Source: Centroscyllium fabricii (lineage: Eukaryota). From it: a DNA stretch of 64,000 nucleotides. The translations under genes and the position numbers were made by a program. Below the pieces are notes generated by a model. The model saw nothing but the letters and a program-made list of their open reading frames with translations. It did no database searches and was not told the origin of the DNA. The stretch spans positions 182,032,001 to 182,096,000 of the forward strand of contig JBNRSN020000010.1 of the NCBI GenBank assembly GCA_051313645.2. Reading direction: 5' to 3'. Shown here piece after piece: positions 2,349 to 64,000 of the stretch; within the stretch, counting starts at the first letter, position 1; the number at the start of each line of letters is the position of its first letter.

Positions 2349-3052
2349 CAGGTTGAGCACTGGTAATCCGGCACCCTCGGGACCAGGCCGGTGCCGGACC
2401 ACTGAAAATTCCGAACCACTGAAGGTTCGGGGGGAGCGCGCGGTAGAACACTCCCCGGGGCCCAGAGCGCGCGGATAGAACACTCCCCAGGGCTCAGAGC
2501 GCGCGGATAGAACACTCCCCGGGGCCCGGAGCACGCGGTAGAACACTCCCCGGGGCCCAGAGCGCGCGGGTAGAACACACCCCGGGAGGGAGCCTGGGGA
2601 ATAGAACACTTACAAAACCTAAAAAGACAGCAACCCAAACGCCCGATGCCTTTGGCGCTCGCTCACCCTTCCCGGGAAATGATGGCGCCGCCGAGCAGTT
2701 GCTCCGCAAAATGAAGAGCGCCGGTTTCATAGAAACATAGAAGATCGGAGCAGGAGTAGGCCATTCGGCCCTTCGAGCCTGCTCCGCCATTCAATGAGAT
2801 CATGGCTGATCATCCAAATCCAGTACCCTGTCCCTGCCTTCTCCCCATATCCCTCGATCCCTATCGAGCCTGCACCGACACATATCCCACACTATCCCCG
2901 TAACCCCACATATTCAATCCCCCTAACACTAAGGGTCAATTTATCATGGCCAATCAACCTAACCCGCACATTTTTGGACTTTGGGTTTCCAATCGTGCCA
3001 GACCACTGAAGCTGCCAGACCATCAGGTGCCAGATTACCGGTGCTCAACCTG
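2349..3052 (+). mobile_element. Non-autonomous Tc1/mariner-pogo/Tigger-type MITE, copy 1
   Basis: TA|caggttgagcactggtaatccggcacc ... ggtgccagattaccggtgctcaacctg|TA. Contains a 31-32 bp tandem repeat (2434-2590) and an HE1 fragment. Confidence 0.85.
2728..2980 (-). mobile_element. HE1-type V-SINE, 5'-truncated, inside MITE copy 1
   Basis: Near-identical to the 3' half of the full copies at 9161 and 19876. Confidence 0.85.
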
Positions 3053-7600: not shown

Positions 7601-7841
7601 AAGCTGGTTAAAATCAATTATTTTTTTATTCCGATTTTCTTTCCAGTGAATTCCTGTTTTCATTAAGATGAAGGATGCTAGTGCTGGATAATGGAACTCT
7701 AACACAGTTCCAGGTGCTTGGCATCAACATCAAATACTCGCAGGGTCAAAATAGACGGCACAGATACCGAGTAAAGGAAGTGGGAAATGGAAAGGCTGTG
7801 CTGTCATGTTAGGCTATTGTTCTGAGGTTGGGATTGAGGTA

Positions 7842-8247
7842 CAGGTCTGACACCGTTAATCCGGCACCGTCGGGACGAGGCCGGTTCCGGACTAGTGAAA
7901 AATCCGAACGACTGAAGTTTCGGCGAGCGCATGTGCAAACCATTCAAAATGACTGCAGCGCATGCGCAGACCATTCAAAATGGCCACCGCGCATGCGCAA
8001 ACCATTCAAAATGGCCACCGCGCATGCGCAGCTGTTCAAAATGGCTGCTGTGCATGCGCAGACCATTCAAAATGGCCGTTGTGCATGCGCAGATTATTCA
8101 AAATGGCCGCTGTGCATGTGCAGACCAGTTGGGAGAGGCCCGCGCATCGTGAGCGTCCCTGGGATCATGTGGGCCGGCCAGACGGATTCGTGCCAGACCA
8201 CTGAAGTTTCTGGATTAACGGTCTCCGGATTAACGGTGCACAACCTG
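7842..8247 (+). mobile_element. Tigger/pogo-type MITE, copy 2, with a 31-bp tandem array
   Basis: TA|caggtctgacaccgttaatccgg ... ccggattaacggtgcacaacctg|TA. About 6.5 units of gcgcatgcgcagaccattcaaaatggccacc at 7927-8125. Confidence 0.85.
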
Positions 8248-9160
8248 TATATTGCTGGGAGAGTAGAGGGGACCTATACTCTGTGTCTGGCCTGCACTGT
8301 ACCGGATCTAGGAGCGCTTAATACATAAAAGTGTTGGGCACAGTGCAGGAGAAAAGTGTCCCATTCTCTCGCACTGTCATCCCTCACTCTGATCAGTACA
8401 AAATTCACCAAAAGTTTAGGAGGGAATTATCATGTCATTCATCAACGTATCATCACAGAGGAATCAAGCAGAAATTCAAATCAGTCAGAAGCTGGCAGAT
8501 AAAACACCTTTCCTAATCTACATAATTTTACACTGCGTCCCATCGTGAATTTTTTTAAATTATAATTATATTTGAAATACACAATATAGATGATCAGAGG
8601 CAATATTAACTCAAAACTCAATACCTATTTAGTTAAGAATAGTACAGGGAAAAAGTATATTCACTTTAAGTTGAATGATCTAAATAGAAAATACCAATTA
8701 TTATTTTCTGAGAGTACATGACACCCAATGAAGAAGGTGCTTATCTATTTGTACATTGACCAATGGTTAATTATTCACAGAAATCTGATTATGATTTGAG
8801 ATTTTTTAAAAGCCCCCCACCCTCCATAAATGGCCTCACCAGTTTATCGCTTGTGCTAGATATTCTTACTGAAGTGCAATTGAATTTCTTGTCCCTTTCC
8901 AAATGTAATAGTGGAAACGATGAATGTTGGAAGTGCCTTTTCTCAGACGATGCGCTCGGTTTGAAGTTGGAAGTCCGAGCCGTGAGGTAAGCAGTGAGTC
9001 GTTAGCAACAACTGCTCATACTTAGAAAGAGCTGAGGCAGCATCTGAAAGGGACAGACAATGGAGTATAAAAGTAGGGAAGTCCTGCTACAACTGTACAC
9101 GGTATTGGTGAGGCTACACCTGGAGTACTGCGTACAGTTTTGATCTCCTTATTTAAGGAA

Positions 9161-16008: not shown

Positions 16009-16640
16009 CAGGTTGTGCACCATTAATCCACCACGGGCGGGACCAGGCCCGTGCCGGGAAACTGAAAAAAACGGGAGAACGAAGTTGGACACTGCGCATG
16101 CGCACCATTCAAAATGGCCGCGATTGGGATTGCTGGCGCGTGCATGCGCAGATCAGCCAATAATGTCCGGCGCGAAGTTTTTTGAGGGGCTCAGGCTTGT
16201 GTGGCGTTCCGTTTGCCTTTTAGGGCTGTCGGGCAGCAGTGAAAGGCCGGTCTTGCAGGGGGGGAAGGAGGGTTGTGCGGGCGCGGGTCGGGCCCAGTAG
16301 GTTCGCCTTCCCTCTCCATCGCCTTTCGGGTTGCTGCTGCCGCCGAGCCGGACTCAGGCTGACAGCTGTTGCCTAGTGACTGTCCGCCTCAGTGACGGGG
16401 CTCAGCTGTCGAGAAAATAACCGGCGGCCGTATTGAATTATCTGCGCATGCGCAGATCATTCAAAACACCCGGCAGCCGTTTTGAATGATCTGCGCATGC
16501 GTTCGGCGCATGCGCAGATCATTCGCCGAAGCCGCGATGGCGGCTGCCATCTTGCGCATGCGCAGTGCAGTCGGGGCAATTTGTGCCGGCAGACTGAAGC
16601 TGCCGGCTTTTCGGGACACGGATTTTCGGTGCACAACCTG
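16009..16640 (+). mobile_element. Tigger/pogo-type MITE, copy 3
   Basis: TA|caggttgtgcaccattaatcc ... ggattttcggtgcacaacctg|TA; several tgcgcatgcgca palindromes. Confidence 0.85.
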
Positions 16641-17609: not shown

Positions 17610-18915
17610 TTACTCCCCCTCCCCGGTTTACTCCCCTCTCCCTCCCCGATTTACTCCCCCGAGTTTACTCCCTCCCCCTCCCCATTTACTCCTCTCCCTC
17701 CCCAGTTTACTCCTCCCCCTCCCCCTCTCCCTCCCCAGTTTACTCCTCCCCCTCCCCCTCTCCCTCCCCAGTTTACTCCTCCCCCTCTCCCCGGTTTCCG
17801 CCCCTCCCTAGTTTACTCCACACCCTCCCCCTCCCCAGTTTACTCCTCCCACTCCCCCTCCCCAGTTTACTCCTCCCCTTCCCCAGTTTACTCCTCCCCC
17901 TCCCCCTCCCCAGTTTACTACTCCCCCTCCCCCTCCCCCTCCCCAGTTTACTCCTCCCATTGCCCCTCCCCCTCTCCCCGGTTTACACCCCTCCCTAGTT
18001 TACACCACCCCCTCCCCATTTACTCCACCCCCTCCCCAGTTTACTCCTCCCCCTCCCCCTCTCCCTCCCCAGTTTACTCCATCCCCTCCCCCTCTCCCTC
18101 CCTAGTTTACTCCTCCCCCTCCCCCTCTCCCTCCCCAGTTTACTCCACCCCCTCCCCCTCTCCCTCCCTAGTTTACTTCTCCCCCTCCCCCTCTCCCTCC
18201 CCAGTTTACTCTTCCCCCTCCCCCTCTCCCTCCCCAGTGTACTCCTCCCCCTCCCCCTCTCCCTCCCTAGTTTACTCTACCCCTCCCCCTCTCCCTCCCC
18301 AGTTTACTCCACCCCTCCTCCTCTCCCTCCCTAGTTTACTCCACCCCTCCCACTCTCCCTCCCCAGTTTACTCCTCCCCCTCCCCCTCTCCCTCCCCAGT
18401 TTACTCCTCCCCCTCCCCCTCTCCCTCCCCAGTTTACTCCACCCCTCCCCCTCTCCCTCCCTAGTTTACTCCACCCCTCCCCCTCTCCCTCCCCAGTTTA
18501 CTCCTCCCCCTCCTCCTCTCCCTCCCCAGTTTACTCTTCCCCCTCCCCCCTCCCTCCCTAGTTTACTCCTCCCCCTCCCCCTCTCCCTCCCCAGTTTACT
18601 CCACCCCCTCCCACTCTCCCTCCCCAGTTTACTCCACCCCCCCCTCTCCCTCCCCAGTTTACTCCACCCCCTCCCACTCTCCCTCCCCAGTTTACTCCTC
18701 CCCTCCCCCTCCCCAGTTTACTCCACCCCCTCCCACTCTCCTTCCCCAGTTTACTCCACCCCCTCCCCCTCTCCATCCCCAGTTTACTCCTCCCCCTCCC
18801 CCTCTCCCTCCCCAGTTTACTCCTCCCCTCCCCCTCCCCCTCCCCAGTTTACTCCACCCCCTCCCACTCTCCCTCCCCAGTTTACTCCACCCCCACCCCC
18901 TCTCCCTCCCCAGTT
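17610..18915. repeat. C-rich minisatellite (ccccagtttactcc + variable cctcc units) inside a small TIR element (17560-19002)
   Basis: Dozens of agtttactcc-anchored units; flanks ggggagtaaattct / agaattcaccccc form imperfect TIRs. Confidence 0.9.
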
Positions 18916-19875
18916 TGGAAAGCAGGTCAGGCGGGGTGTAAAAGGCGCTGCCGATTCGTTACGCCCTGTTCTGTGCTACCACCCAAGACAGAATTCACCC
19001 CCTGCCTCCCTTTAGCTGTGAAACTTCTAAAGTAATTTTGCAACAAAAGTAAAATAGAATGGTAGAGTCAAATAGTTCCCAAAGGCATAAGCAAAACCAG
19101 AGGAGAAAATAAAAGTGCGGCATATGTAGACTTTACAAACGGGTACTTGACATTCCTCCAATCTTATGTCACAGTGCACAGAAGGAATTGCTATATAAAA
19201 CTTTGGTGAGAAACATGCCCCCAAGTTACTACCGATCAGGCGCTTCCATTGTTTCAGGAGGGATTAAAATTAAAAACCCACCAAAAAATAATAATATTTT
19301 CAAATGAGGTGGCGGACAACAGCAGCATTATAATTATGAAAGATTGGGCAGGTCGTAACTGCTTTTAATGACATAAAGCGATGCATGAAATGTGCCTATT
19401 GCTGAAAGGCAATATTCTCAGGGAGTCAGCACTCCCAGAGAGCCTGTAACGCAGAGCGAGGATCTAGCACTCTAAATATGGAGAGAGTGTCAGATTCAGC
19501 GTTACGAACATATTGCCATTATTTCTAGAACATCTCTCCTGCCCTGTTGCGATGGAATCTTCAATTAGCGAGGCTTGTTGACTTTTCAGGAGCTTGAATC
19601 ACACAATCTTCAGATCTGTGCCTGCTCCCTCACTGCCCCGAGACTGCAGTTCAAAATAATCAAAACTCGCATCCACTCAAATTTGTTTTAATCCCATTCC
19701 GCCCACCCACTGAAAATACGATTTTATTATTTGTCCAATTCTGTTATAAAAGATGCTCTTGTGATTCTTAATCATATAGCGGCATCAACAATCCCTGAAT
19801 ATATAACGATAAAATAAAGCACAGAAAGAGGCCATTCAGCCCATCGTGACTGTGCCGGTTCTTTGAAAGAGCTGT

Positions 19876-31809: not shown

Positions 31810-32890
31810 GCGGATCTGTACCTCGACAATATGTACAGATGTAGGGTCTGTATCTGGACAATGTGTAGGGATGTGGGGTCTAAATCTGGACAATGTGTAG
31901 GGATGTGGGATCTGTATCTGTACAATGTGGGATCTATATCTGGACAATTGTTAGGGATGTAGGATCTGTACGTGGACAATGTGTAGGGATGTAGGATCTG
32001 TACGGGGACAATGTGTAGGGATGTGGATCTGTACCTGGACAATGTGTAGGGATGTGAGGTCTGTATCTGGGCAATGTGTAGGGATGTGAGGTCTGTATCT
32101 GGACAATGTGTAGGGATGTGAGGTCTGTATCAGGACAATGTGTAGGGGTGTGGGGTCTGTATCTGGACAATGTGTAGGGATGTGAGGTCTGTATCTGGAC
32201 AATGTGTAGGGGTGTGGGGTCTGTATCTGGACAATGTGTAGGGATGTGAGGTCTGTATCTGGACAATGTGTAAGGATGTGAGGTCTGTATCTGGACAAAT
32301 ATGTAGAGATGTAGGGTCTGTATCTGGACTATGTGTAGGGGTGTGGGGTCTGTATCTGGACAATGTGTAGGGATGTGGGGGTCTGTATCTGGACAATGTG
32401 TAGGGGTGTGGGGTCTGTATCTGGGCAATGTGTAGGGAGGTGAGGTCTGTATCTGGACAATGTGTAGGGGTGTGGGGTCTGTATCTGGACAATGTGTAGG
32501 GATGTGGGGTCTGTATCTGGGCAATGTGTAGGGAGGTGAGGTCTGTATCTGGACAATGTGTAGGGGTGTGGGGCCTGTATCTGGACAATGTGTAGGGATG
32601 TGAGGTCTGTATCTGGGCAATGTGTAGGGATGTGGGGTCTGTATCTGGACAATGTGTAGGGATGTGAGGCCTGTATCTGGACAATGTGTAGGGATGTGGG
32701 GTCTGTACCTGGACAATGTGTAGGGGTGTGGGGTCTGTACCTGGACAATGTGTAGGGATGTGAGGTCTGTATCTGGACAATGTGTAGGGGTGTGGGGCCT
32801 GTATCTGGACAATGTGTAGGGGTGTGCAGTCTGTATCTGGACAACGTGTAGGGATGTGAGGCCTGTATCTGGACAATGTGTAGGGATGTG
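31810..32890. repeat. 32-bp minisatellite gtctgtatctggacaatgtgtagggatgtgag, ~33 copies
   Basis: Direct tandem repeat; the 32-aa periodicity in the ORF track equals three units. Confidence 0.95.
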
Positions 32891-41301: not shown

Positions 41302-43599
41302 TTATTTACTGAGCTTAAATAAAGGAGACTATGATGGTATGAGAGCGGAATTGATTAAGGTGGACTGGGAAAACAGATTGAAGTGTAAGACGCTACATGA
41401 TCAGTGGCGTGTATTCAAGGAGTTATTTTACAACTTTCAAGAAAAATATATTCCACTGCGGAAAAAAGGATGTAAAAGAAAAAATAGCTATCCGTGGCTA
41501 AGTAAAGTAATAAAGGAGAGTATCCGACTAAAAACAAGGTTAAATAGGTAGCTAAATCTAGTGGGAAGATAGAAGATCTGGAAGCTTTTAAAAGTCAGCA
41601 AAAAATAACAAAAAGATTGATTAAGAAAGGGAAGATAGATTATGAAAGTAAATTAGCAAAAAATATAAAAACAGATAGCAAGAGTTTCTATAGTTACATA
41701 AAAAGAAAAAGGGTGACTAAAGTAAATGTTGGTCCTTTAGAGGATGAGACCGGGAAATTAGTGGTAGGGGACATGGAGATGGCAAAAGCACTGAACAAAT
41801 ATTTTGTATCAGTCTTTACAGTAGAGGACACTCAAAATATCCCAACATTGGATAAACAGGTGGCTCTAGTGGGGGAGGAGCTAATTACGATTAAAGTCAC
41901 TAAGGAAGTGGTACTCGGGAAAATTATGGGACTTAAGGTGGATAAATCCCCTGGACCTGATGGCTTACATCTTAGGGTCTTGAGGGAAGTGGCGGTAGGG
42001 ATTGTGGATACATTGGTAATAATTTTTCAAAACTCTCTGGACTCGGCAAAGGTTCCGGCAGATTGGAAAACTGCTAATGTAACGCCTTTATTTAAAAAGG
42101 GTAATAGACAGAAGGCTGGAAATTATAGACCAGTTAGCCTAAAATCTGTGGTTGGCAAAATGTTAGAATCCATTATTAAGGAAACAGTAACAGGGCATTT
42201 GGATAAACATAATTTAATAGGACAAAGTAAGCATGGTTTTACAAATGGGAAGTTATGTTTGACAAATTTGCTAGAGTTCTTTGAGGACATAACATATAGG
42301 GTGGATAAAGGGTAACCAGTGGATGTAGTGTATTTGGATTTCCAAAAGGCATTTGACAAGGTGCCCCACAAAAGATTATTACTCAAGATAAAAAATCACG
42401 GGGTTGGGGGTAATATTCTGGCATGGGTGGAGGATTGGCTTTCTAACAGAAAACAGAGAGTTGCGATAAATGGTTCGTTCTCAGACTGGCAGTCAGTGAC
42501 TAGTGGTGTTCCGCAAGGGTTGGTGCTGGGACACCAACTCTTTACAATCTATATTAATGATTTGGAGGAAGGGACCAAGTGCAACATATCAAAGTTTGCG
42601 GATGACACAAAGATGGGAGGGAGGGTGATGAGTGAGGAGGACATTAAAAACCTGCAGAAGGACATAGATAGGCTAAGTGAGTGGGCAGAGATTTGGCAGA
42701 TGGAGTATAATACTGGAAAGTTTGAAGTTATGCACTTTGGCAGGAAAAATAATAGAGCGAGTTATTATCTAAATGGAAAGAAACTGGAAAGTACTTCAGT
42801 GCAAAGGGATCTGGGGGTCCTGGTGCAGGAAACACAAAAAGTTAATATGCAGGTGCAGCAGGTGGTCAGGAAGGCCAACGGAATGTTGGCTTTTACTGCT
42901 AAGGGGATGGAGTATAAAAGCAGGGAGGTCTTGCTGCAGTTGTACAGGGTATTGGTGAGACCACACCTGGAATACTGCGTGCAGTTCTGGTATTCATATT
43001 TAAGAAAGGACATACTTGCTCTCGAGGCAGTGCAAAGAAGGCTCACTAGGTTAATTCCGGGGATGAGGAGGCTAACATATGACGAGAGGCTGAGTAGATT
43101 GGGCCTCTACTCATTGGAGTTCAGAAGAATGAGAGGCGATCTTATTGAAACATATAAGATTGTGAGAGGGCTTGATCGGGTGGATGCGGTGAGGATGTTC
43201 CCAATGGTGGGTGAAACTAGGACTAGGGGGCATGATCTTAAAATAAGGGGCTGCCATTTCAAAACTGAGATGAGGAGAAACTTCTTCACTCAGAGGGTGG
43301 TGGGGCTGTGGAATTTGCTGCCCCAGAGAGCTGTGGAATCTACTAGATTGAATAAATTTAAAACAGAGACAGACAGTTTTCTGGAAGTAAAGGGAATTAG
43401 GGGTTATAGTGAGCGGGCAGGTAAGTGGACGTGAGGCTAGGTTCAGATCGGCCATGTGATCTCCTGGACCAGTTTTCGATCGCCTAGATGGGTCGGAGAG
43501 GAATTTCCCAGATTTTGTCTTCCAAATTGGCCACTGGGTTTTTTATCTGGTTTTTTCGCCTCTCCCGGGTGATCACATGGGTTTGGGCGGGATGGAGAG
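41302..43599 (+). mobile_element. CR1 LINE ORF2 (post-endonuclease region and RT); 3' UTR continues at 48156-48197
   Basis: KSPGPDG, NYRPVSL, YLDFQKAFDKV, SGVPQG and KFADD motifs; premature TAA at 42313. Confidence 0.95.
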
Positions 43600-43961: not shown

Positions 43962-45689
43962 TCACATTTCCTCAATCAACCTGTGCGGTTGCCGAGTCAC
44001 CCGGTCAGAGCGACGTAGTTCAGGTGCAGGTACAGGCTGCGATTGTTGAGCAGCAATTCTAGATGAACGCCTGACCTCACTAGGCGGCGAGGGCCAAGGT
44101 ACTATCGTTGGGGACTCAGGTACCAGGAAATCCGGAGTTAACGGCTCGACCATCTCCGTAGGCAGTTCCAAGACTTGTTCCTTTGCAGGACTTGACACCG
44201 GTAAAAATGTCGTGGGCGGATGCACTGGCGTTGCTAACGACTGATCACGAGAGTACGACATCTCCTCACGGCTCACATGTTCCGGAGGACTAGCTAATGG
44301 TTCCTGAAGCTGCGGGGAGCCCACCAGCTGGTCCACGTGGCGGCGAATTACTCCTCCGTTGGTGTCAATCGCATACATCAATGGTCCTTGCTTTGCCGCG
44401 ACGACTCCAGATCGCCATTTCTGGTCACGGTAGTCCCGAGCAAGAACCTGATCACCCACATTAAAACTGCGCACAGTCTTTGGGGACAAATGTTGAAAAA
44501 CCCTTTTATCCACCTCACGCTTCAGGTCTGGTCTCAATAAGTCAAGCCTGGAGCCCAGTCGTCTGTTAAAAAAGACCATTGCTGGGGACTGACCCGTTAC
44601 TGTATGCGTAGCATTCCTGTAACTAAACAGAAAATTGTCCAATCTATGCTGCAGGGGCAAGTTCTCTAACCGCGAAGCTTTCAAGGACTTTTTGAATGAC
44701 TGCACAAATCGCTCTGCCAATCCATTTGTGGCAGGGTGGTAAGGGGCCGAAGTGTAGTGCTTGATGCCATTTCCTTTCAAAAATCTCTTGAACTCCTCGG
44801 ACACAAACTGGGGACCATTGTCCGAACACAATTGTTCCGGAAGACCATACCTGGCGAAAATTGTCCTCAAAACCACGATTGTTTTCTGCGCCGTAGTCGA
44901 AGACATTTTAATCACTTCCGGCCATTTGGAGTGCGCGTCAACTACCACCAGAAACATGGATTCCTGAAACGGGCCAGCAAAATCCACATGAATCCTTTTC
45001 CATGGTGCCGACGGCCACTCCCACGGATGTACCGGAACCACCGGTGGTGAATTCTGTACCAGCTGACAACCTTGGCAGTACTTGGTCAGCTCCTCAATCT
45101 GCCCGTCTATTCCAGGCCACCACACAGAGGCACGTGCTAAGCTCTTCATTTTGGTGCATCCGAGATGCCCTATGTGTAATTCTTTCAAAATTACTTTTTG
45201 TAACTTCACTGGGATGACCACCCTGGATCCGCACATTAAGGTTCCCAGACAAGTAGACAGTTGTTCCCTCCTGGCAAAATACTGAGCCAGTCGTGGATCA
45301 TTCCGAGCCGGCCAACCCTTTACTGTGGCATCATACACCAGTGATAACACTGGGTCATTTCTGGTTTCCCTCTCAATGTCCCTGTTGGTCACCGGCAAGG
45401 CTTCTACAATAGACGTATGGAAAAGGTCCGCAGCATCCAATACGGTATCTTTACCTTTTACTGGCAGCGGAAGTCGTGACAAGCTGTCTGCGTTGGCGTG
45501 TTGTTTGGTCCCTCTGTATTGTATGTCGTACTGGTGCGCACCCAGGAACAAAGACCACCTCTGCAATCGTTGCGCCGTCATCATTGGAACTGCCTTGTTT
45601 GGGTTAAAAATGGCAACCAAAGGTTGATGATCGGTTATCAGAGTAAATTTTTGTCCATATAGATAGTGATGAAATTTTTTACGCCCCAC
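43962..45689 (-). CDS. pol: RNase H C-terminus and integrase
   Basis: TDHQPL, HIGHLG..C..C, RIHVDFAGP, SDNGPQF, NGLAERFV. Confidence 0.9.
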   Translation of the reverse strand: MGRKKFHHYLYGQKFTLITDHQPLVAIFNPNKAVPMMTAQRLQRWSLFLGAHQYDIQYRGTKQHANADSLSRLPLPVKGKDTVLDAADLFHTSIVEALPVTNRDIERETRNDPVLSLVYDATVKGWPARNDPRLAQYFARREQLSTCLGTLMCGSRVVIPVKLQKVILKELHIGHLGCTKMKSLARASVWWPGIDGQIEELTKYCQGCQLVQNSPPVVPVHPWEWPSAPWKRIHVDFAGPFQESMFLVVVDAHSKWPEVIKMSSTTAQKTIVVLRTIFARYGLPEQLCSDNGPQFVSEEFKRFLKGNGIKHYTSAPYHPATNGLAERFVQSFKKSLKASRLENLPLQHRLDNFLFSYRNATHTVTGQSPAMVFFNRRLGSRLDLLRPDLKREVDKRVFQHLSPKTVRSFNVGDQVLARDYRDQKWRSGVVAAKQGPLMYAIDTNGGVIRRHVDQLVGSPQLQEPLASPPEHVSREEMSYSRDQSLATPVHPPTTFLPVSSPAKEQVLELPTEMVEPLTPDFLVPESPTIVPWPSPPSEVRRSSRIAAQQSQPVPAPELRRSDRVTRQPHRLIEEM

Positions 45690-46624
45690 ACCAGGCTCAG
45701 GGCCTCCCGATCAATCTGTGCATAGTTCTTTTCAGCCGACGTTAGTGATCTGGACGCAAACGCAATAGGTCGTTCGGCCCCTCCCGGAAACTGGTGAGAG
45801 AGCACCGCTCCAATGCCATAAGGCGATGCATCACAGGCCAGTTTAATTGGAATTGTAGGATCGAAATGTGCCAATATTTTCTCGGAAGTGATCAACCTTT
45901 TACTCTCCGCAAATGCCTTAACGCATTCTGGGGACCATTTCCAAGGAACCCCAGTCCTCAAGAGGTTATTTAGAGGGTGCAGAATAGTAGACAGGTTCGG
46001 TAAGAACTTGTGGTAATAATTAATCAGTCCTAGGTACGAGCGCAGCTTTGAAACAGTTTCCGGTGCCGGTGCATTTACTACAGCCTCCACTTTCTCTGGT
46101 GACTTATGCAACCCGGTCCTATCAATGATGTGGCCACAATATGATAGCTTCTCCTTAAAAAATTCACATTTGTCCTTATTGGCCCTTAATCCATATTGTT
46201 TCAATCGCTGTAAAACTCGTTCCAGATCGTCCAAATGATCCGTTTCTGTTCTTCCTGTGATCAAGATGTCGTCTAGGTAGCATTGGGTGCCCGGAATTCC
46301 TTGCAACACCTGCTCCATGGCTCTTTGCCAAATTGCCGGAGCAGATGCAATCCCAAATATCAACCTATTGTAGCGGTATAGACCCCTGTGTGTGTTGATT
46401 GTAAGAAATTGTCTGGAATCCACATCGACCTCCATCTGTAGGTACGCCTGTGCCAGATCAATCTTCGAAAAACATTGTCCACCTGCTAAGGACGCAAAAA
46501 TGTCTTCAATCTTTGGCAACGGATATTGTACTATTCGCAACACCGGGTTTACCGTTACCTTGAAGTCACCACAAATTCTGACCTTTTGATGCGCCCCTGG
46601 ACTGTCAGCAATCATCTTCTTCAT
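45638..46624 (-). CDS. pol: Reverse transcriptase and RNase H (frameshifted at ~45675)
   Basis: RICGDFK, KIDLAQAY, YLDDILI, CDAS..GIGAVL, NYAQIDREAL. Confidence 0.9.
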   Translation of the reverse strand: MKKMIADSPGAHQKVRICGDFKVTVNPVLRIVQYPLPKIEDIFASLAGGQCFSKIDLAQAYLQMEVDVDSRQFLTINTHRGLYRYNRLIFGIASAPAIWQRAMEQVLQGIPGTQCYLDDILITGRTETDHLDDLERVLQRLKQYGLRANKDKCEFFKEKLSYCGHIIDRTGLHKSPEKVEAVVNAPAPETVSKLRSYLGLINYYHKFLPNLSTILHPLNNLLRTGVPWKWSPECVKAFAESKRLITSEKILAHFDPTIPIKLACDASPYGIGAVLSHQFPGGAERPIAFASRSLTSAEKNYAQIDREALSLVWGVKNFITIYMDKNLL

Positions 46625-46659
46625 GACTGGTACAATGGGAGTAGCCCAATTACTCCATT

Positions 46660-47664
46660 CTACCTTGGAAAGTACCCATGGTAATCTTTTTCATTTATTA
46701 CCGTCAACGCCGATCCCGTGTCTAGTTCCAATTTTAGTGAAATACCAGAGATGGATAGGGTAACCCAGATAGCATCACGGTCTCCACTCCCTTGGACCGA
46801 CTGTATATGCAAACATTTCAACTTTTCTTCCCCGCCGGACTCTTCATTCTCACTGGAACTTTCTTTATTAAACTCGTAGACCCTCTTGGTCTCAGACTTA
46901 AAAGCACTTGCTTTCTTGGCTGTCTTCTTTTCGGAATCAGTAGCTTTGCAGACTTTTGCCATGTGTCCCATTTTACCACAGTTTCTGCAACTTTTGTCCT
47001 TGAACCAGCAATTCTGGTGATGATGGGATGTCTTCCCACAACGGAAACATCTTACTCTGGTTAACATCCTATGTGTATCCAGTTCCATATCCTTTTTCTG
47101 GATCACCGCCGCGCCCTTCTGCGCCGCTTCGAACGAGATAGCCATCTTTATAGCCTTTTCTAATCCTAGCTCGCTTTCGGCCAGTAGCTTTTGTTGGAGC
47201 TCCTCGCTTTGAAGTCCGCACACAAACCTGTCACGTATGGCTTGGTTTAAAAATTCTTCAAACCTACAGAACACCGTCAGCTTCCTGAGTTCCGATAAAA
47301 ATTGCGCCACCGATTCACCCGGTCTCTGATCTCTTCTATAGAACGCGAACCGTTCGGGCAAAAACAATGGAGCAGGGTTCAAATGCTCCTTTAGCTTATC
47401 GGATATCTGCTGAAATGATGCTTCTGTTGGCTTCTTTGGGTACAGGAGGTTCTTTAATAAGCCGTACGTCTTTGTACCCATTACGTTTAACAAGTTTGCG
47501 GCCTTTTTTTCTTCTGTGACCTCATTCACTACACAGTATACATTAAATCTCTCAACGTACGTGTCCCAGTCTTCTAATTCGCCGTCAAATACCGACATAT
47601 TACCTCTTTTTGACATTTTTCTTGCCTTCTCACCGTTTTTAACACTGCGTCGAGGAAAAAGCAA
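46660..47664 (-). CDS. gag: Gag with two CCHC knuckles and a truncated aspartic protease
   Basis: RDRFVCG, CFRCGKTSHHHQNC, CRNCGKMGHMAKVC, LDTGS. Confidence 0.85.
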   Translation of the reverse strand: MLFPRRSVKNGEKARKMSKRGNMSVFDGELEDWDTYVERFNVYCVVNEVTEEKKAANLLNVMGTKTYGLLKNLLYPKKPTEASFQQISDKLKEHLNPAPLFLPERFAFYRRDQRPGESVAQFLSELRKLTVFCRFEEFLNQAIRDRFVCGLQSEELQQKLLAESELGLEKAIKMAISFEAAQKGAAVIQKKDMELDTHRMLTRVRCFRCGKTSHHHQNCWFKDKSCRNCGKMGHMAKVCKATDSEKKTAKKASAFKSETKRVYEFNKESSSENEESGGEEKLKCLHIQSVQGSGDRDAIWVTLSISGISLKLELDTGSALTVINEKDYHGYFPR

Positions 47665-48197
47665 AATGGCGCTTCCTGCCCTTCAATTAGGGCTGGGAAA
47701 AGGTTCCGCTGCCTTAATCCTCTACAGCGCCCTTTTCCCGGACTGAACCTCTCTCCCTGACCTTGAAGGTACCCTCAGTACAGGGCACCGATACTCACCG
47801 ACCTGCTTTACTTTGCTCGACCTCGCACCACCGTCCAATCTCTGAGGGTGCGGGGAGCAATTTGATGTCGTTGTTTTCTTTATTTCCCGACTCCTCTCAG
47901 CGCCCGCTGCTCTTCTTGCCTTCTGGGTCCTTTACCTGCGTCGCCACTGTTAAGTCTGGGGTGTCCAGACTTAATAACTTAGTCGGAGTCAGGAGGTAAT
48001 CAACAAAGTAGGTGTTTAATCTATGGGAGAGAATTAAGACCTGGCTCAAAAGGCAACTGCCAACCGAACTAACATTCTAGAACACTGCAGAGAACACAGG
48101 AGTTACTGGTATTCCAAATAGGTGTTGGATTCCCTTAAAGGGGCCATACACCACAGAGAGTAAAAATAAAATTGAGGTTAGGATCAGATCAGCCTTG

Positions 48198-53854: not shown

Positions 53855-54484
53855 CAGGTTGAGCACCGGTAATCCGTTAACCGGAAAGCCGGCAGCTTCA
53901 GTCGTCTGGTATAAATTGCCCCAACTGCCCTGCGCATGCGCAAAATGGCCGCCGCGATTGATGCTTCGGCAAAAGATCTGCGCAAGCGTCACCGAACGGC
54001 GAGCGCATGCGCAGATCATTCACAATGGTTGCCGCGGGCCGGGCCTCCCCGAGCCGATTGCGGTCCAGGCCTTCCCGAGTCTCTCTGAACCGATTGCGGT
54101 CCAGGCCTTCCCGAGTTTCTCCGAGCCGATCGCGGGCCGGGCCTTCCTGAGTCTCTCCGAGCCGATCGCGGGCCGGGCCGTCCCGAGTCTCTCCGAGCCG
54201 ATCGCGGGCCGGGCCGTCCCGAGTCTCTCCGAGCCGATCGCGGGCCGGGCCGTCCCGAGTCTCTCCGAGCCGATCGCGGGCCGGGTCTCTCTGAGCCGAT
54301 CGCGGGCCGGGGCTCCCCGAACGATAAGCGCATGCACAGACCACTCAAAATGGCCACTGGCCTTTCGCGACTGCCATTTTGAATTGTCTGCGCATGCGCT
54401 CGCCAAAGCTTCAATCGTTCGGGATTTTCACTTTCCCAGCACGGGCCTGGTCCCGCCCGTGCCGGATTAACGGTGCTCAAGCTG
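53855..54484 (-). mobile_element. Tigger/pogo-type MITE, copy 4, with a 36-bp tandem array
   Basis: TA|caggttgagcaccggtaatcc ... ggattaacggtgctcaagctg|TA. About 7 units of ccgagccgatcgcgggccgggccgtcccgagtctct at 54049-54312. Interrupts a minus-strand CR1 remnant. Confidence 0.85.
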
Positions 54485-61340: not shown

Positions 61341-64000
61341 TGACGTATCGTCAATACCTTCGATTAAAAGAGTCGACGAGTAGTTACCGAAACTAAAGGC
61401 TTTTAATTGCTAAGAACGGAGCTACCCTCCGGAACGAACTACAGTACAGGAATGAAGGAGCCTCGGTCAGATCTCACCTATAACGGGGCCTCACCTGGGG
61501 GAGGAGTTGGAGGTGTGGCTGACCTGGCTCCCAACAGTGTCACAGTATACAGGGCTGTGCCTAACATCTGCACAGCCCATCATTAGCCATAATGGTACAG
61601 TGGTATAACAGACATACAATGGTTACCACATTCACCCCTTCTTAAAAACTTTGAGTCCGGGGGGGGTGAATGGGTCGAACAGTTCACAATAAGTCTGTCC
61701 GGCGGTCGTGTCTGCCTGGAGGACCGCCGGCGCTCCGGTGTTGGTGGTGGTGCCTCCTAGGTCGAATCGCCCGCATCTGCCGGCGCTGTGACTTCAGGTG
61801 GCGGTGGGCTCGGCTGGTCCCCGCCGTCTGGGTCGTAGTTGGGGAAACTCAGGGGCCATCGTGTGTCTGGTGGTTGATCGGCCTGCTGGCCGGCCGGGGG
61901 CTCTGCGGTGGTGATTCCTGCGGGAGCCAGGTCCCTGATGGACACGGTGTCCTCACGCCCGTCCGGGAACTGCACGAAGGCGTAGTGCGGGTTCGCGTGT
62001 AGGAGCTGTACCTTGTCCACCAGGGGGTCCGTCTTGTGGCTCCGGAAATGCCTTCTAAGCAAAACCGGCCCCGGAGTCGTCAGCCATGGTGGAAGAGCTG
62101 TCCCCGAAGTCGACCTCCTGTTGAAAGAGAAAATCAGATCGTGCGGGATGGCGTTAGTGGCAGTACATAACAGAGAGCGTATAGAGTGCAGCGCGTCTGG
62201 GAGGACTGCCTGCCAATGGGACACTGGAAGGCCTCTGGACTTGAGAGCCAGGGTGACCGCCTTCCAAATGATCCCATTCTCCCTTTCTACCTGGCCGTTC
62301 CCCCGGGGGTTATAACTGGTCGTTCTGCTCGTGGCAACCCCTCTCTGGAGCAGAAACTGGCGCAGTTCATCGCTCATGAACGATGACCCCCCGTTCGCTA
62401 TGGATGTAGCTGGGGAGACCGAAAATGGCGAACAGCGTGGTGAAGTGTTTGATCACCGTTGCGCTCGTCATGTCTGGGCAGGGGAAGGCGAAGGGGAAGC
62501 GGGAGAACTCATCCACTACCGTGAGGAAGTATGAGTTGCGGTCGGTGGAAGGGAGGGGGCCTTTGAAGTCCACGCTGAGACGTTCAAAGGGGCGGGTGGC
62601 CTTAATGAGGTGCGCCGTGTCTGGCCGGAAAAAGTGGGGTTTGCACTCGGCGCAGACAGGGCACTCTCGGGTCATAGCCTTGATCTCCGTGATGGAGTAG
62701 GGGAGGCTACGAGATTTGACGAAGTGGGCGAGTCTGGTGACACCCGGGTGGCAAAGGCGGTCGTGGAGGTCCTTCAGCCGGTCTAGCTGGGCACTGGCGC
62801 ACGTTCCCCTGGACAGTGCATCCGGGGGTTCATTGAGTTTGCCTGGTCGGTAAAGAATGTCGTACTCGTAAGTCGAGAGTTCGATCCGCCACCGCAGGAT
62901 CTTATCATTCTTGATTTTACCCCGTAGTTTATTGTTAAACATAAACGCCACCGACCGTTGGTCGGTGAGCAGGGTAAAACGCTTACCGGCCAGGTAATGA
63001 CGTCAGTAGTGCACGGCCTCCACGATGGCCTGGGCCTCCTTTTCCACTGCTGAGTGGCGAGTTTCGGGTCCCTGTAAGGTGCGGGAGAAAAACGCTACCG
63101 GCCTGCCTGCCTGATTCAGGGTGGCAGCAAGGGCAAAGTCCGAAGCGTCGCTCTCCACCTGGAAAGGGATGGATTCATCAACAGCGAGCATGGTCGCCTT
63201 GATAATATCTTCCTTTATCGTTTCGAATGCCGTTTGGGCTTCTACAGAAAGGGGGAAGACGGCAGCCTTGAGGAGTGGTCTAGCCTTATCTGCGAACTGT
63301 GGGACCCATTGTGCATAATAGGAGAAAAATCCTAGGCATCTCCTCAAGGCTTTGGGGTTGTGAGGTAGGGGCAGTTCTTGCAGGGATCGCATACGCTGTG
63401 GGTTGGGGCCGAGGAGCCCGTTTTCCACCACGTATCCGAGGATGGCGAGCCGGGCTGTATTAAAGACACATTTGTCCTTGTTATACGTGAGGTCCAGCTT
63501 GTCCGCCGTGGCGAGGAATTTGGCCAGATTGGCATCGTGGTCCTGCTGGTTGTGGCCGCAGATGGTCACGTTGTCCAGGTAAGGGAAAGTGGCCTGCAAG
63601 TCATTTTGGTCAACCATACGGTCCATCTCTCGTTGGAACACTGACACCCCGTTGGTCACGCCAAAGGGGACCCGGAGGAAGTGGTAGAGCCGACCGTTCG
63701 CCTCGAAGGCGGTGTAGGGGCGGTCGGCTTTCCGAATCGGGAGTTGGTGATACGCCGATTTAAGGTCGATCGTAGAGAACACCTTGTACTGGGTGATCTG
63801 GTTGACCATTTCCGAGATGCGGGGAAGGGGGTAGGCGTCGAGCCCGGTGTAGCGGTTGATAGTCTGGCTGTAATCGATAACCAGCCGCTGTTTTTCGCCA
63901 GACTTCACCACTACAACTTGGGCGCGCCAGGGGCTGGTGCTGGCTTCAATTATCCCCTCCTTCAGCATCCGCCCGACCTCCGACCTGATAAACGTGCGAT
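61341..64000 (-). mobile_element. Ty3/Gypsy element 3' part: RT-RNase H-integrase pseudogene, PPT and 3' LTR (61341-61630)
   Basis: ORFs 63003-63968 (RT/RH), 62367-62951 and 61757-62377 (integrase: DFKGP, YNPRGNGQVER); one stop and one frameshift; PPT aagaaggggtgaa abuts TGTGGTAACC. Confidence 0.92.

Follow-up and report, generated by a model that had tools for sequence, protein, structure and literature searches.

A non-coding miniature transposon of probable Tigger type whose NRF1- and YY1-like words appear to derive from a young autonomous parent

The 406-bp element at positions 7842–8247 of the window—that is, of the whole 64-kb stretch of DNA that we analyzed—would be a miniature Tigger (pogo) transposon that codes for no protein; it shares its ends with a young parent, from whose ends its transcription-factor-like words derive. 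With moderate confidence, and from comparisons among sequences, we favor the reading that those words benefit the element and not the host, and that they decay once a copy has been inserted. The element has the form TA-CAGG…CCTG-TA and comprises the following features, listed by window position and strand.

7840–7841, no strand: left TA target-site duplication; TA is present at both ends in 25 of the 30 closest copies
7842–7866, plus: left TIR, imperfect, 19/25 identical to the right TIR; the same TIR occurs in autonomous elements
7867–7926, plus: left subterminal arm, nearest to the 3' end of a sister Tigger that lacks the motifs (80% across element positions 1–79)
7927–8127, plus: array of 6.5 copies of a 31-bp unit (TRF: period 31, 84% matches)
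7958–7967, 7989–7998 and 8020–8029, no strand: perfect NRF1 word GCGCATGCGC, intact in 3/7 units
7977–7984, and also from 8008, 8038, 8069 and 8100, plus: YY1-like word AAAATGGC, intact in 5/6 units
8128–8185, plus: short module, with only ~25-bp hits in the fetched parents
8186–8247, minus: right arm including the TIR (8223–8247), matching that sister Tigger's 5' end at 83% (90% for the majority)
8248–8249, no strand: right TA target-site duplication, flanking the element

In each unit an NRF1-type palindrome precedes a second one, CCATT-nnn-AATGG, the right half of which is the YY1-like AAAATGGC; the extent of the array agrees with the approximately 6.5 copies counted in a preliminary description of this DNA. 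The other four NRF1 units of the focal copy are broken, mostly through CpG-type changes, while the majority of 30 related copies has perfect words in all units. A part of the short module of about 29 bp, containing CACGTG in the family majority, is found in other repeats as well.

The same description had called the element a MITE, which designation is borne out by the TIRs, the TA duplication, the non-coding length of 406 bp, and a transposase-coding parent with the same TIRs. The following attributes of a Tigger/pogo MITE were found: a TA duplication, TIRs of 40 bp or less, short non-coding copies in high number, and an autonomous partner sharing the TIRs. TA flanked 44 of 48 sampled TIR ends, and a Pfam scan of the 171-aa open frame that spans the focal element gave no hit.

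The parent is a pogo element, probably a Tigger, of 3,892–4,081 bp with the focal TIRs and a 605-aa transposase ORF carrying the CENP-B_N, HTH_Tnp_Tc5 and DDE_1 domains. We reached it by a further, third protein search after the pogo-domain searches, the top DDE_1 and HTH_Tnp_Tc5 hits being rejected as the parent because they come from Tigger families unrelated to this one, whose TIRs are different. The catalytic triad, DD32D by motif reading, fits both Tigger and pogoR; the nearest named proteins, at about 46–55%, are JRK/TIGD2-like and favor Tigger over pogoR, the best full-length protein match being 54%. In the portion of the source on which we draw, JRK/TIGD2-like proteins are described as derived from Tigger (Gao et al., 2020, PMC7386202). 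Twenty fetched stretches made up the parent census: 10 held full parent elements with TA on both sides, 2 held longer versions, 3 held sisters, and 5 were without a complete element. Since seven copies differ by only 0.5–1.2% from their own majority, we regard the parent as young. One parent copy has three NRF1 words within its first 200 bp, one about 330 bp before the ATG—adjoining an AT-rich, TATA-like run—and two within its last 300 bp, and its ORF has none; against those six, composition-matched simulations gave a mean of 0.007. The focal element, which shares the ends, was likely moved in trans by the transposase of this parent.

The sister Tigger, of 3.3–3.6 kb, has the same TIRs and an ORF with 80% nucleotide identity to that of the parent, and bears no NRF1 or YY1 words. 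The three sisters (L352, L353 and L354) lie on one contig within near-identical flanks, for which reason we treat them as segmental duplicates and not as independent insertions. The element ends may resemble those of human Tigger4/Zombi-MER46, and a captured piece that may resemble a retroposon tail occurs in an autonomous parent (L339, element positions ~200–420) and in some MITEs (L067, L080 and L085). As to other Tigger families of this genome, one has nearly identical ORFs of about 600 aa within C2H2 zinc-finger-gene-like sequence on two contigs (L108, L109 and L110), and the DDE region of one such family has taken up ends of focal-family MITEs at nearly the same place at two loci (L040:~2130–2348, L047:1332 onward).

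The focal subfamily has a mosaic make-up, with arms that match the motif-free sister (left 81%, right 90%) and a majority 31-bp unit that resembles, at 87% over 54 bp, the motif-bearing parent's 3' arm. We propose that template switching between two parents with shared TIRs may have given rise to this combination, and that slippage between neighboring palindromes about 30 bp apart could then have multiplied the unit, at first in the source and at times again after insertion; a third, unsampled parent with the same combination is a possible alternative source. The best 30 of 40 scored matches (from 5,582 candidates), which were chosen for likeness to the focal copy, share a seven-unit frame, and their majority has a 1-bp deletion in unit 4; because the frame and the deletion are common to these closest copies, the seven-unit array was already present in the source element. 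In a separate sample of 30 copies, which a word of the left arm (2,899 exact hits) picked out in genome order, 11 carried from 2 to at least 23 units head to tail, and the rest had different arrangements. The longest array (L313:1455 onward) contains at least 23 homogeneous, CpG-intact units with 25 perfect NRF1 words in 900 bp; this run would be a MITE-derived minisatellite that has undergone a recent local expansion.

The window contains three further elements with the focal TIRs, to which we refer as copies 1, 3 and 4.

2349–3052, no strand: copy 1, of the same TIR family, with sister-type arms, no NRF1 or YY1 words and a 32-bp array of its own; a LINE 3' fragment interrupts it
16009–16640, minus: copy 3, an internal-deletion derivative of a motif-bearing parent (81% over 428 bp to the 3' end, 90% over 189 bp to the 5' end)
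53855–54484, plus: copy 4, with parent-type arms that bear motifs and a central, motif-free 36-bp array

The NRF1 word stands at 16094, 16444, 16506 and 16554 in copy 3 and at 53932, 54003 and 54390 in copy 4; AAAATGGC at 16111 in copy 3 and at 53942, 54347 and, on the minus strand, 54373 in copy 4; and a variant of the YY1-like word, AANATGGC, on the minus strand at 16546 in copy 3. Both words thus occur where the preliminary description had placed its recurring pair in copies 3 and 4. We also considered whether the 32-bp unit of copy 1, which has no motifs, is homologous to the 31-bp unit; this was unsupported, 1,200 of 3,000 shuffles scoring equally well.

The words correspond, as had been claimed, to the published consensus strings, which in the part of the source consulted are ACTGCGCATGCGCA for NRF1 and CAAGATGGCGGC for YY1 (PMC13017510): the YY1-like word of the unit matches the YY1 consensus at 10/12 positions and the first such word of the parent at 11/12, while in the first block of the parent a 14/14 match to the NRF1 consensus overlaps that 11/12 match. 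Inside the window, 10 of the 11 perfect NRF1 words fall within elements of the focal TIR family. The idea of a roughly three-helical-turn spacing of the pair did not hold up as a property of the motifs, since motif-free arrays of the same family likewise have periods of 30–32 bp and since motif spacings of 13, 23, 28 and 48 bp also occur; helical phasing of the motif pair was accordingly rejected. Arrays with a 29–33-bp period accounted for 7 of 12 in or near elements versus 14 of 93 outside them.

The genome assembly, from a vertebrate that to judge by the look of its LINE tails is probably a shark, measures 7.2 Gb, and in it the exact TIR pattern gave 52,832 hits versus 0 for the control. 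A census of 100 evenly placed 10-kb stretches (a 1-Mb sample) yielded 48 TIR ends, as against 2 in shuffled sequence, making up 19 paired elements and 10 unpaired ends, from which the family scales to about 140,000–190,000 elements. The perfect GCGCATGCGC occurs 488,438 times in the genome versus 2,202 and 4,057 times for palindromes of equal base content, which matched controls replaced an earlier reversed-pattern control (360 hits) that holds more CpGs. Among 62 sampled NRF1 words, 46 lay in paired elements (95% interval of that share, 62–84%), 5 near unpaired ends and 11 elsewhere; because 46–51 of the 62 sit in the family, we attribute some 360,000–400,000 NRF1 sites to it. The proposal that the family spreads NRF1- and YY1-like words was in this respect upheld, and on a very large scale. 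Such words are not needed for spreading, however, because the motif-free sister has the same TIRs and because 7 of the 19 sampled paired elements are without any NRF1 word.

The preliminary description had gone further, suggesting that the family may spread a ready-made, copy-number-tunable promoter or enhancer cassette. The strong consensus matches, the variable number of units and the huge supply of sites speak for a working cassette of that kind, kept by the host, as does the observation that, with all sites counted, non-CpG motif positions appear conserved (2.5–3.0% changed versus 4.75%, p 0.001–0.007). That apparent conservation, though, arises because subfamily-diagnostic sites lie in the flanks, and it vanished once 31 high-frequency sites were set aside in a decay test on 29 copies: the non-CpG changes then numbered 27/1070 at NRF1 sites, 42/1392 at YY1 sites and 79/3131 in the flanks (2.5–3.0% versus 2.5%). 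The motif CpGs for their part decayed as fast as or faster than those of the flanks (102/810 at NRF1 sites versus 117/1100, p 0.19); a mean of 2.8 of 7 perfect NRF1 words survives per copy. In 29–30 copies and on terminal branches, we thus found the motifs after insertion to be conserved no further than a neutral rate would allow, which for the bulk of the copies was the very pattern of decay that the original proposal had named as counting against it.

Across 30 copies the CpGs were changed in 26.6% of cases versus 5.3% (27/510) for a GpC control, or five times faster, and judging by that loss these copies do not appear to behave as CpG islands unmethylated in the germline. CpG-biased decay is a signature of germline methylation. 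The focal copy has itself lost 14 of 47 CpGs, and the young parents exhibit the same CpG bias (63/2322 versus 36/10885). Elephant-shark transposable elements show hypermethylation, according to the portion of the source cited (PMC5437953). Among the 30 copies there was no spared subset and no overdispersion (dispersion p 0.19); a rare exapted minority is possible, 30 copies being too few to exclude one. Weak evidence in the same direction comes from the window, where no Pfam hit was obtained among 104 of 187 ORFs of the unmasked sequence and where no CpG-island-like stretch was present outside repeats. The contigs that were compared for expression pile up on the repeat and are not specific to the focal copy. 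We accordingly retain from the suggested cassette the variable unit number and set aside its promoter or enhancer role, the retention of which by the host we hold to be highly improbable in view of the decay after insertion.

In lineages that acted as sources the words appear to have fared otherwise. We mapped changes onto trees of 44 and 29 parent-type arms and distinguished internal from terminal branches. Non-CpG motif sites had 0 internal and 17 terminal changes versus 63 and 75 elsewhere (p 1e-4 combined, 0.001 and 0.08 singly), a signal that is inflated by the short alignments of 120–175 bp, by dependent sites and by repeated motifs that anchor the alignments. With motif-blind recruitment by TIR only, leaving aside the fetched parents, the counts were 1/19 versus 50/119 (combined p 0.017; for the single arms, p 0.11 and 0.16), and shifted masks did as well in 0/82 and, for the 3' arm, 20/80 cases; this weakening of the internal-branch signal in the absence of motif-aware recruitment weakens our preferred explanation. 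In that set the words were kept in 45/45 and 40/41 parent-type arms, 61 of 280 ends being without an arm-type assignment. Within the 407-bp subfamily the comparison (1/59 versus 14/154, p 0.12) was not significant. We regard the near-absence of motif change on internal branches as suggestive, not firm, of selection on the element rather than on the host.

Because the words lie 75–150 bp inside both TIRs, face inward and change less between lineages than do the TIRs themselves (0/17 versus 22/16), one might see in them accessory sites for the transposase or for another element-encoded function, their likeness to host-factor sites being incidental. We judge that unlikely, given that the sister transposase, in spite of its close relation to that of the parent, works on motif-free ends, and given that a further NRF1 word of the parent stands upstream of the ATG beside a TATA-like run.

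A doubtful, though weightier, alternative would be that the words are without function: GC-rich palindromes might arise and be repaired through hairpins or template switching during gap repair, or be re-imported from the parent, so that the likeness to transcription-factor sites would be a matter of chance. Both the NRF1 word and CCATT-nnn-AATGG are in fact palindromes, and the focal element folds strongly (z −4.7); in the clam element DTC84 a palindrome likewise occupies the low-variability part of the unit, as the excerpted account has it (PMC3879986); motif-free relatives have spread too; and the motif-blind arm test is statistically weak. Repair should, however, have reduced the changes on terminal branches as well, where the rates per site are similar (0.44 versus 0.47 in the 5' arm). 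In that same arm, moreover, the AAAATGGC half is conserved save for a degenerate position, whereas the stretch with its palindromic partner varies; the overlapping consensus matches in the first block of the parent (14/14 and 11/12) likewise speak against it; and unrelated LTR elements of the same genome carry the same words.

For the words as servants of the element, the reading that we prefer, the following course of events may be envisaged. Source copies with intact words would be copied more often, and passenger copies would lose theirs; putative binding of NRF1 and YY1 in briefly unmethylated germ cells might open the ends or help to drive the transposase gene; and methylation of the inserted copies by the host would render the bulk of them inert. 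The host genome does encode NRF1, with five exon matches at one locus, and the binding of that factor is described as methylation-sensitive in the part of the literature source used (PMC9729108). In a stronger and only tentative version, selection at the level of the element might act on NRF1 and YY1 sites inside both ends, such that host factors would license movement in germ cells; the MITEs would have brought the module into arms that had no motifs and multiplied it, and the roughly half-million perfect NRF1 sites of the genome—about 120–220 times the control palindromes—would be hidden by methylation against a titration of NRF1.

Both Tigger MITEs and tandem-repeat MITEs are kinds already known; what is new is the parent, the origin of the subfamily as a mosaic, the load of NRF1 words across the genome and the way in which source copies contrast with passengers. 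Tigger elements of the pogo superfamily, in the account available to us (PMC7386202), share with the focal family the TA duplication, TIRs shorter than 40 bp, a parent in the range of 1.2–5.2 kb and the same three domains, with triads of DD29-36D within which the DD32D of the focal parent falls; the focal family differs from those described there in its long, GC-rich, motif-laden ends, in the modular interiors of its MITEs and in its many different minisatellites. The clam element DTC84 is alike in that its flanks form a cassette for an internal array whose length varies, whose variants are fixed by position and whose every unit contains a palindrome, and differs in its AA duplications, its units of ~160 bp and, within the excerpt, a parent that was not identified (PMC3879986), whereas the focal 31-bp unit has been traced to a Tigger parent and is built of transcription-factor-like words. 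The NRF1-driven IAP retrotransposons of mouse germ cells, again as far as the extract goes (PMC12420836), are mobile elements with NRF1 sites that methylation would block, but there the sites belong to LTR promoters and binding and knockout data are at hand, while here the evidence is that of sequence and concerns a DNA transposon, whose words stand at either end and also in copies that do not code.

The distinction that emerges is between a transposon that carries transcription-factor words and a host that uses them, the words appearing to be kept as long as an element acts as a source and to be lost when it has become a passenger. Were the binding real, the family would parallel, among DNA transposons, the activation of IAPs by NRF1, its young, intact parent being accompanied by a natural control in the motif-free sister, and the genome would test how methylation shields a methylation-sensitive factor from decoy sites that number in the hundreds of thousands; were it not, what we describe would be an ordinary, very abundant Tigger MITE family. 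Among the papers listed by our literature searches, none described the family or NRF1-laden DNA transposons in cartilaginous fish; a Repbase or Dfam name may exist.

Other repeats were encountered in passing. The window holds unrelated long minisatellites at 17691–18916 (33-bp period) and 31815–32890 (32-bp period), as well as, by eye, LTR-retroelement ORFs (integrase, gag-pol) at 168–998, 43962–47682 and 61757–63002 and a CR1-type LINE ORF2 at 41548–43434. Elsewhere, the LTRs of a retroelement (L092, L103 and L104, around 1400–1600) contain the NRF1 word in perfect form, next to words of the TGACGTCA type and to a TATA-like run, which retroelement is, to judge from those LTRs, a second mobile family using the NRF1 word. 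A Gypsy-type retroelement, finally, bears 45-bp tandem arrays, many with the YY1 consensus (L162:1964–2563, L173:3288–3850, L186:5045–5359, L191:2923–3387 and others), situated between an apparent gag zinc knuckle and the protease; these may be simply a coding repeat, and the 45-bp period accounts for 25 of the 93 arrays outside MITEs in the 1-Mb sample.
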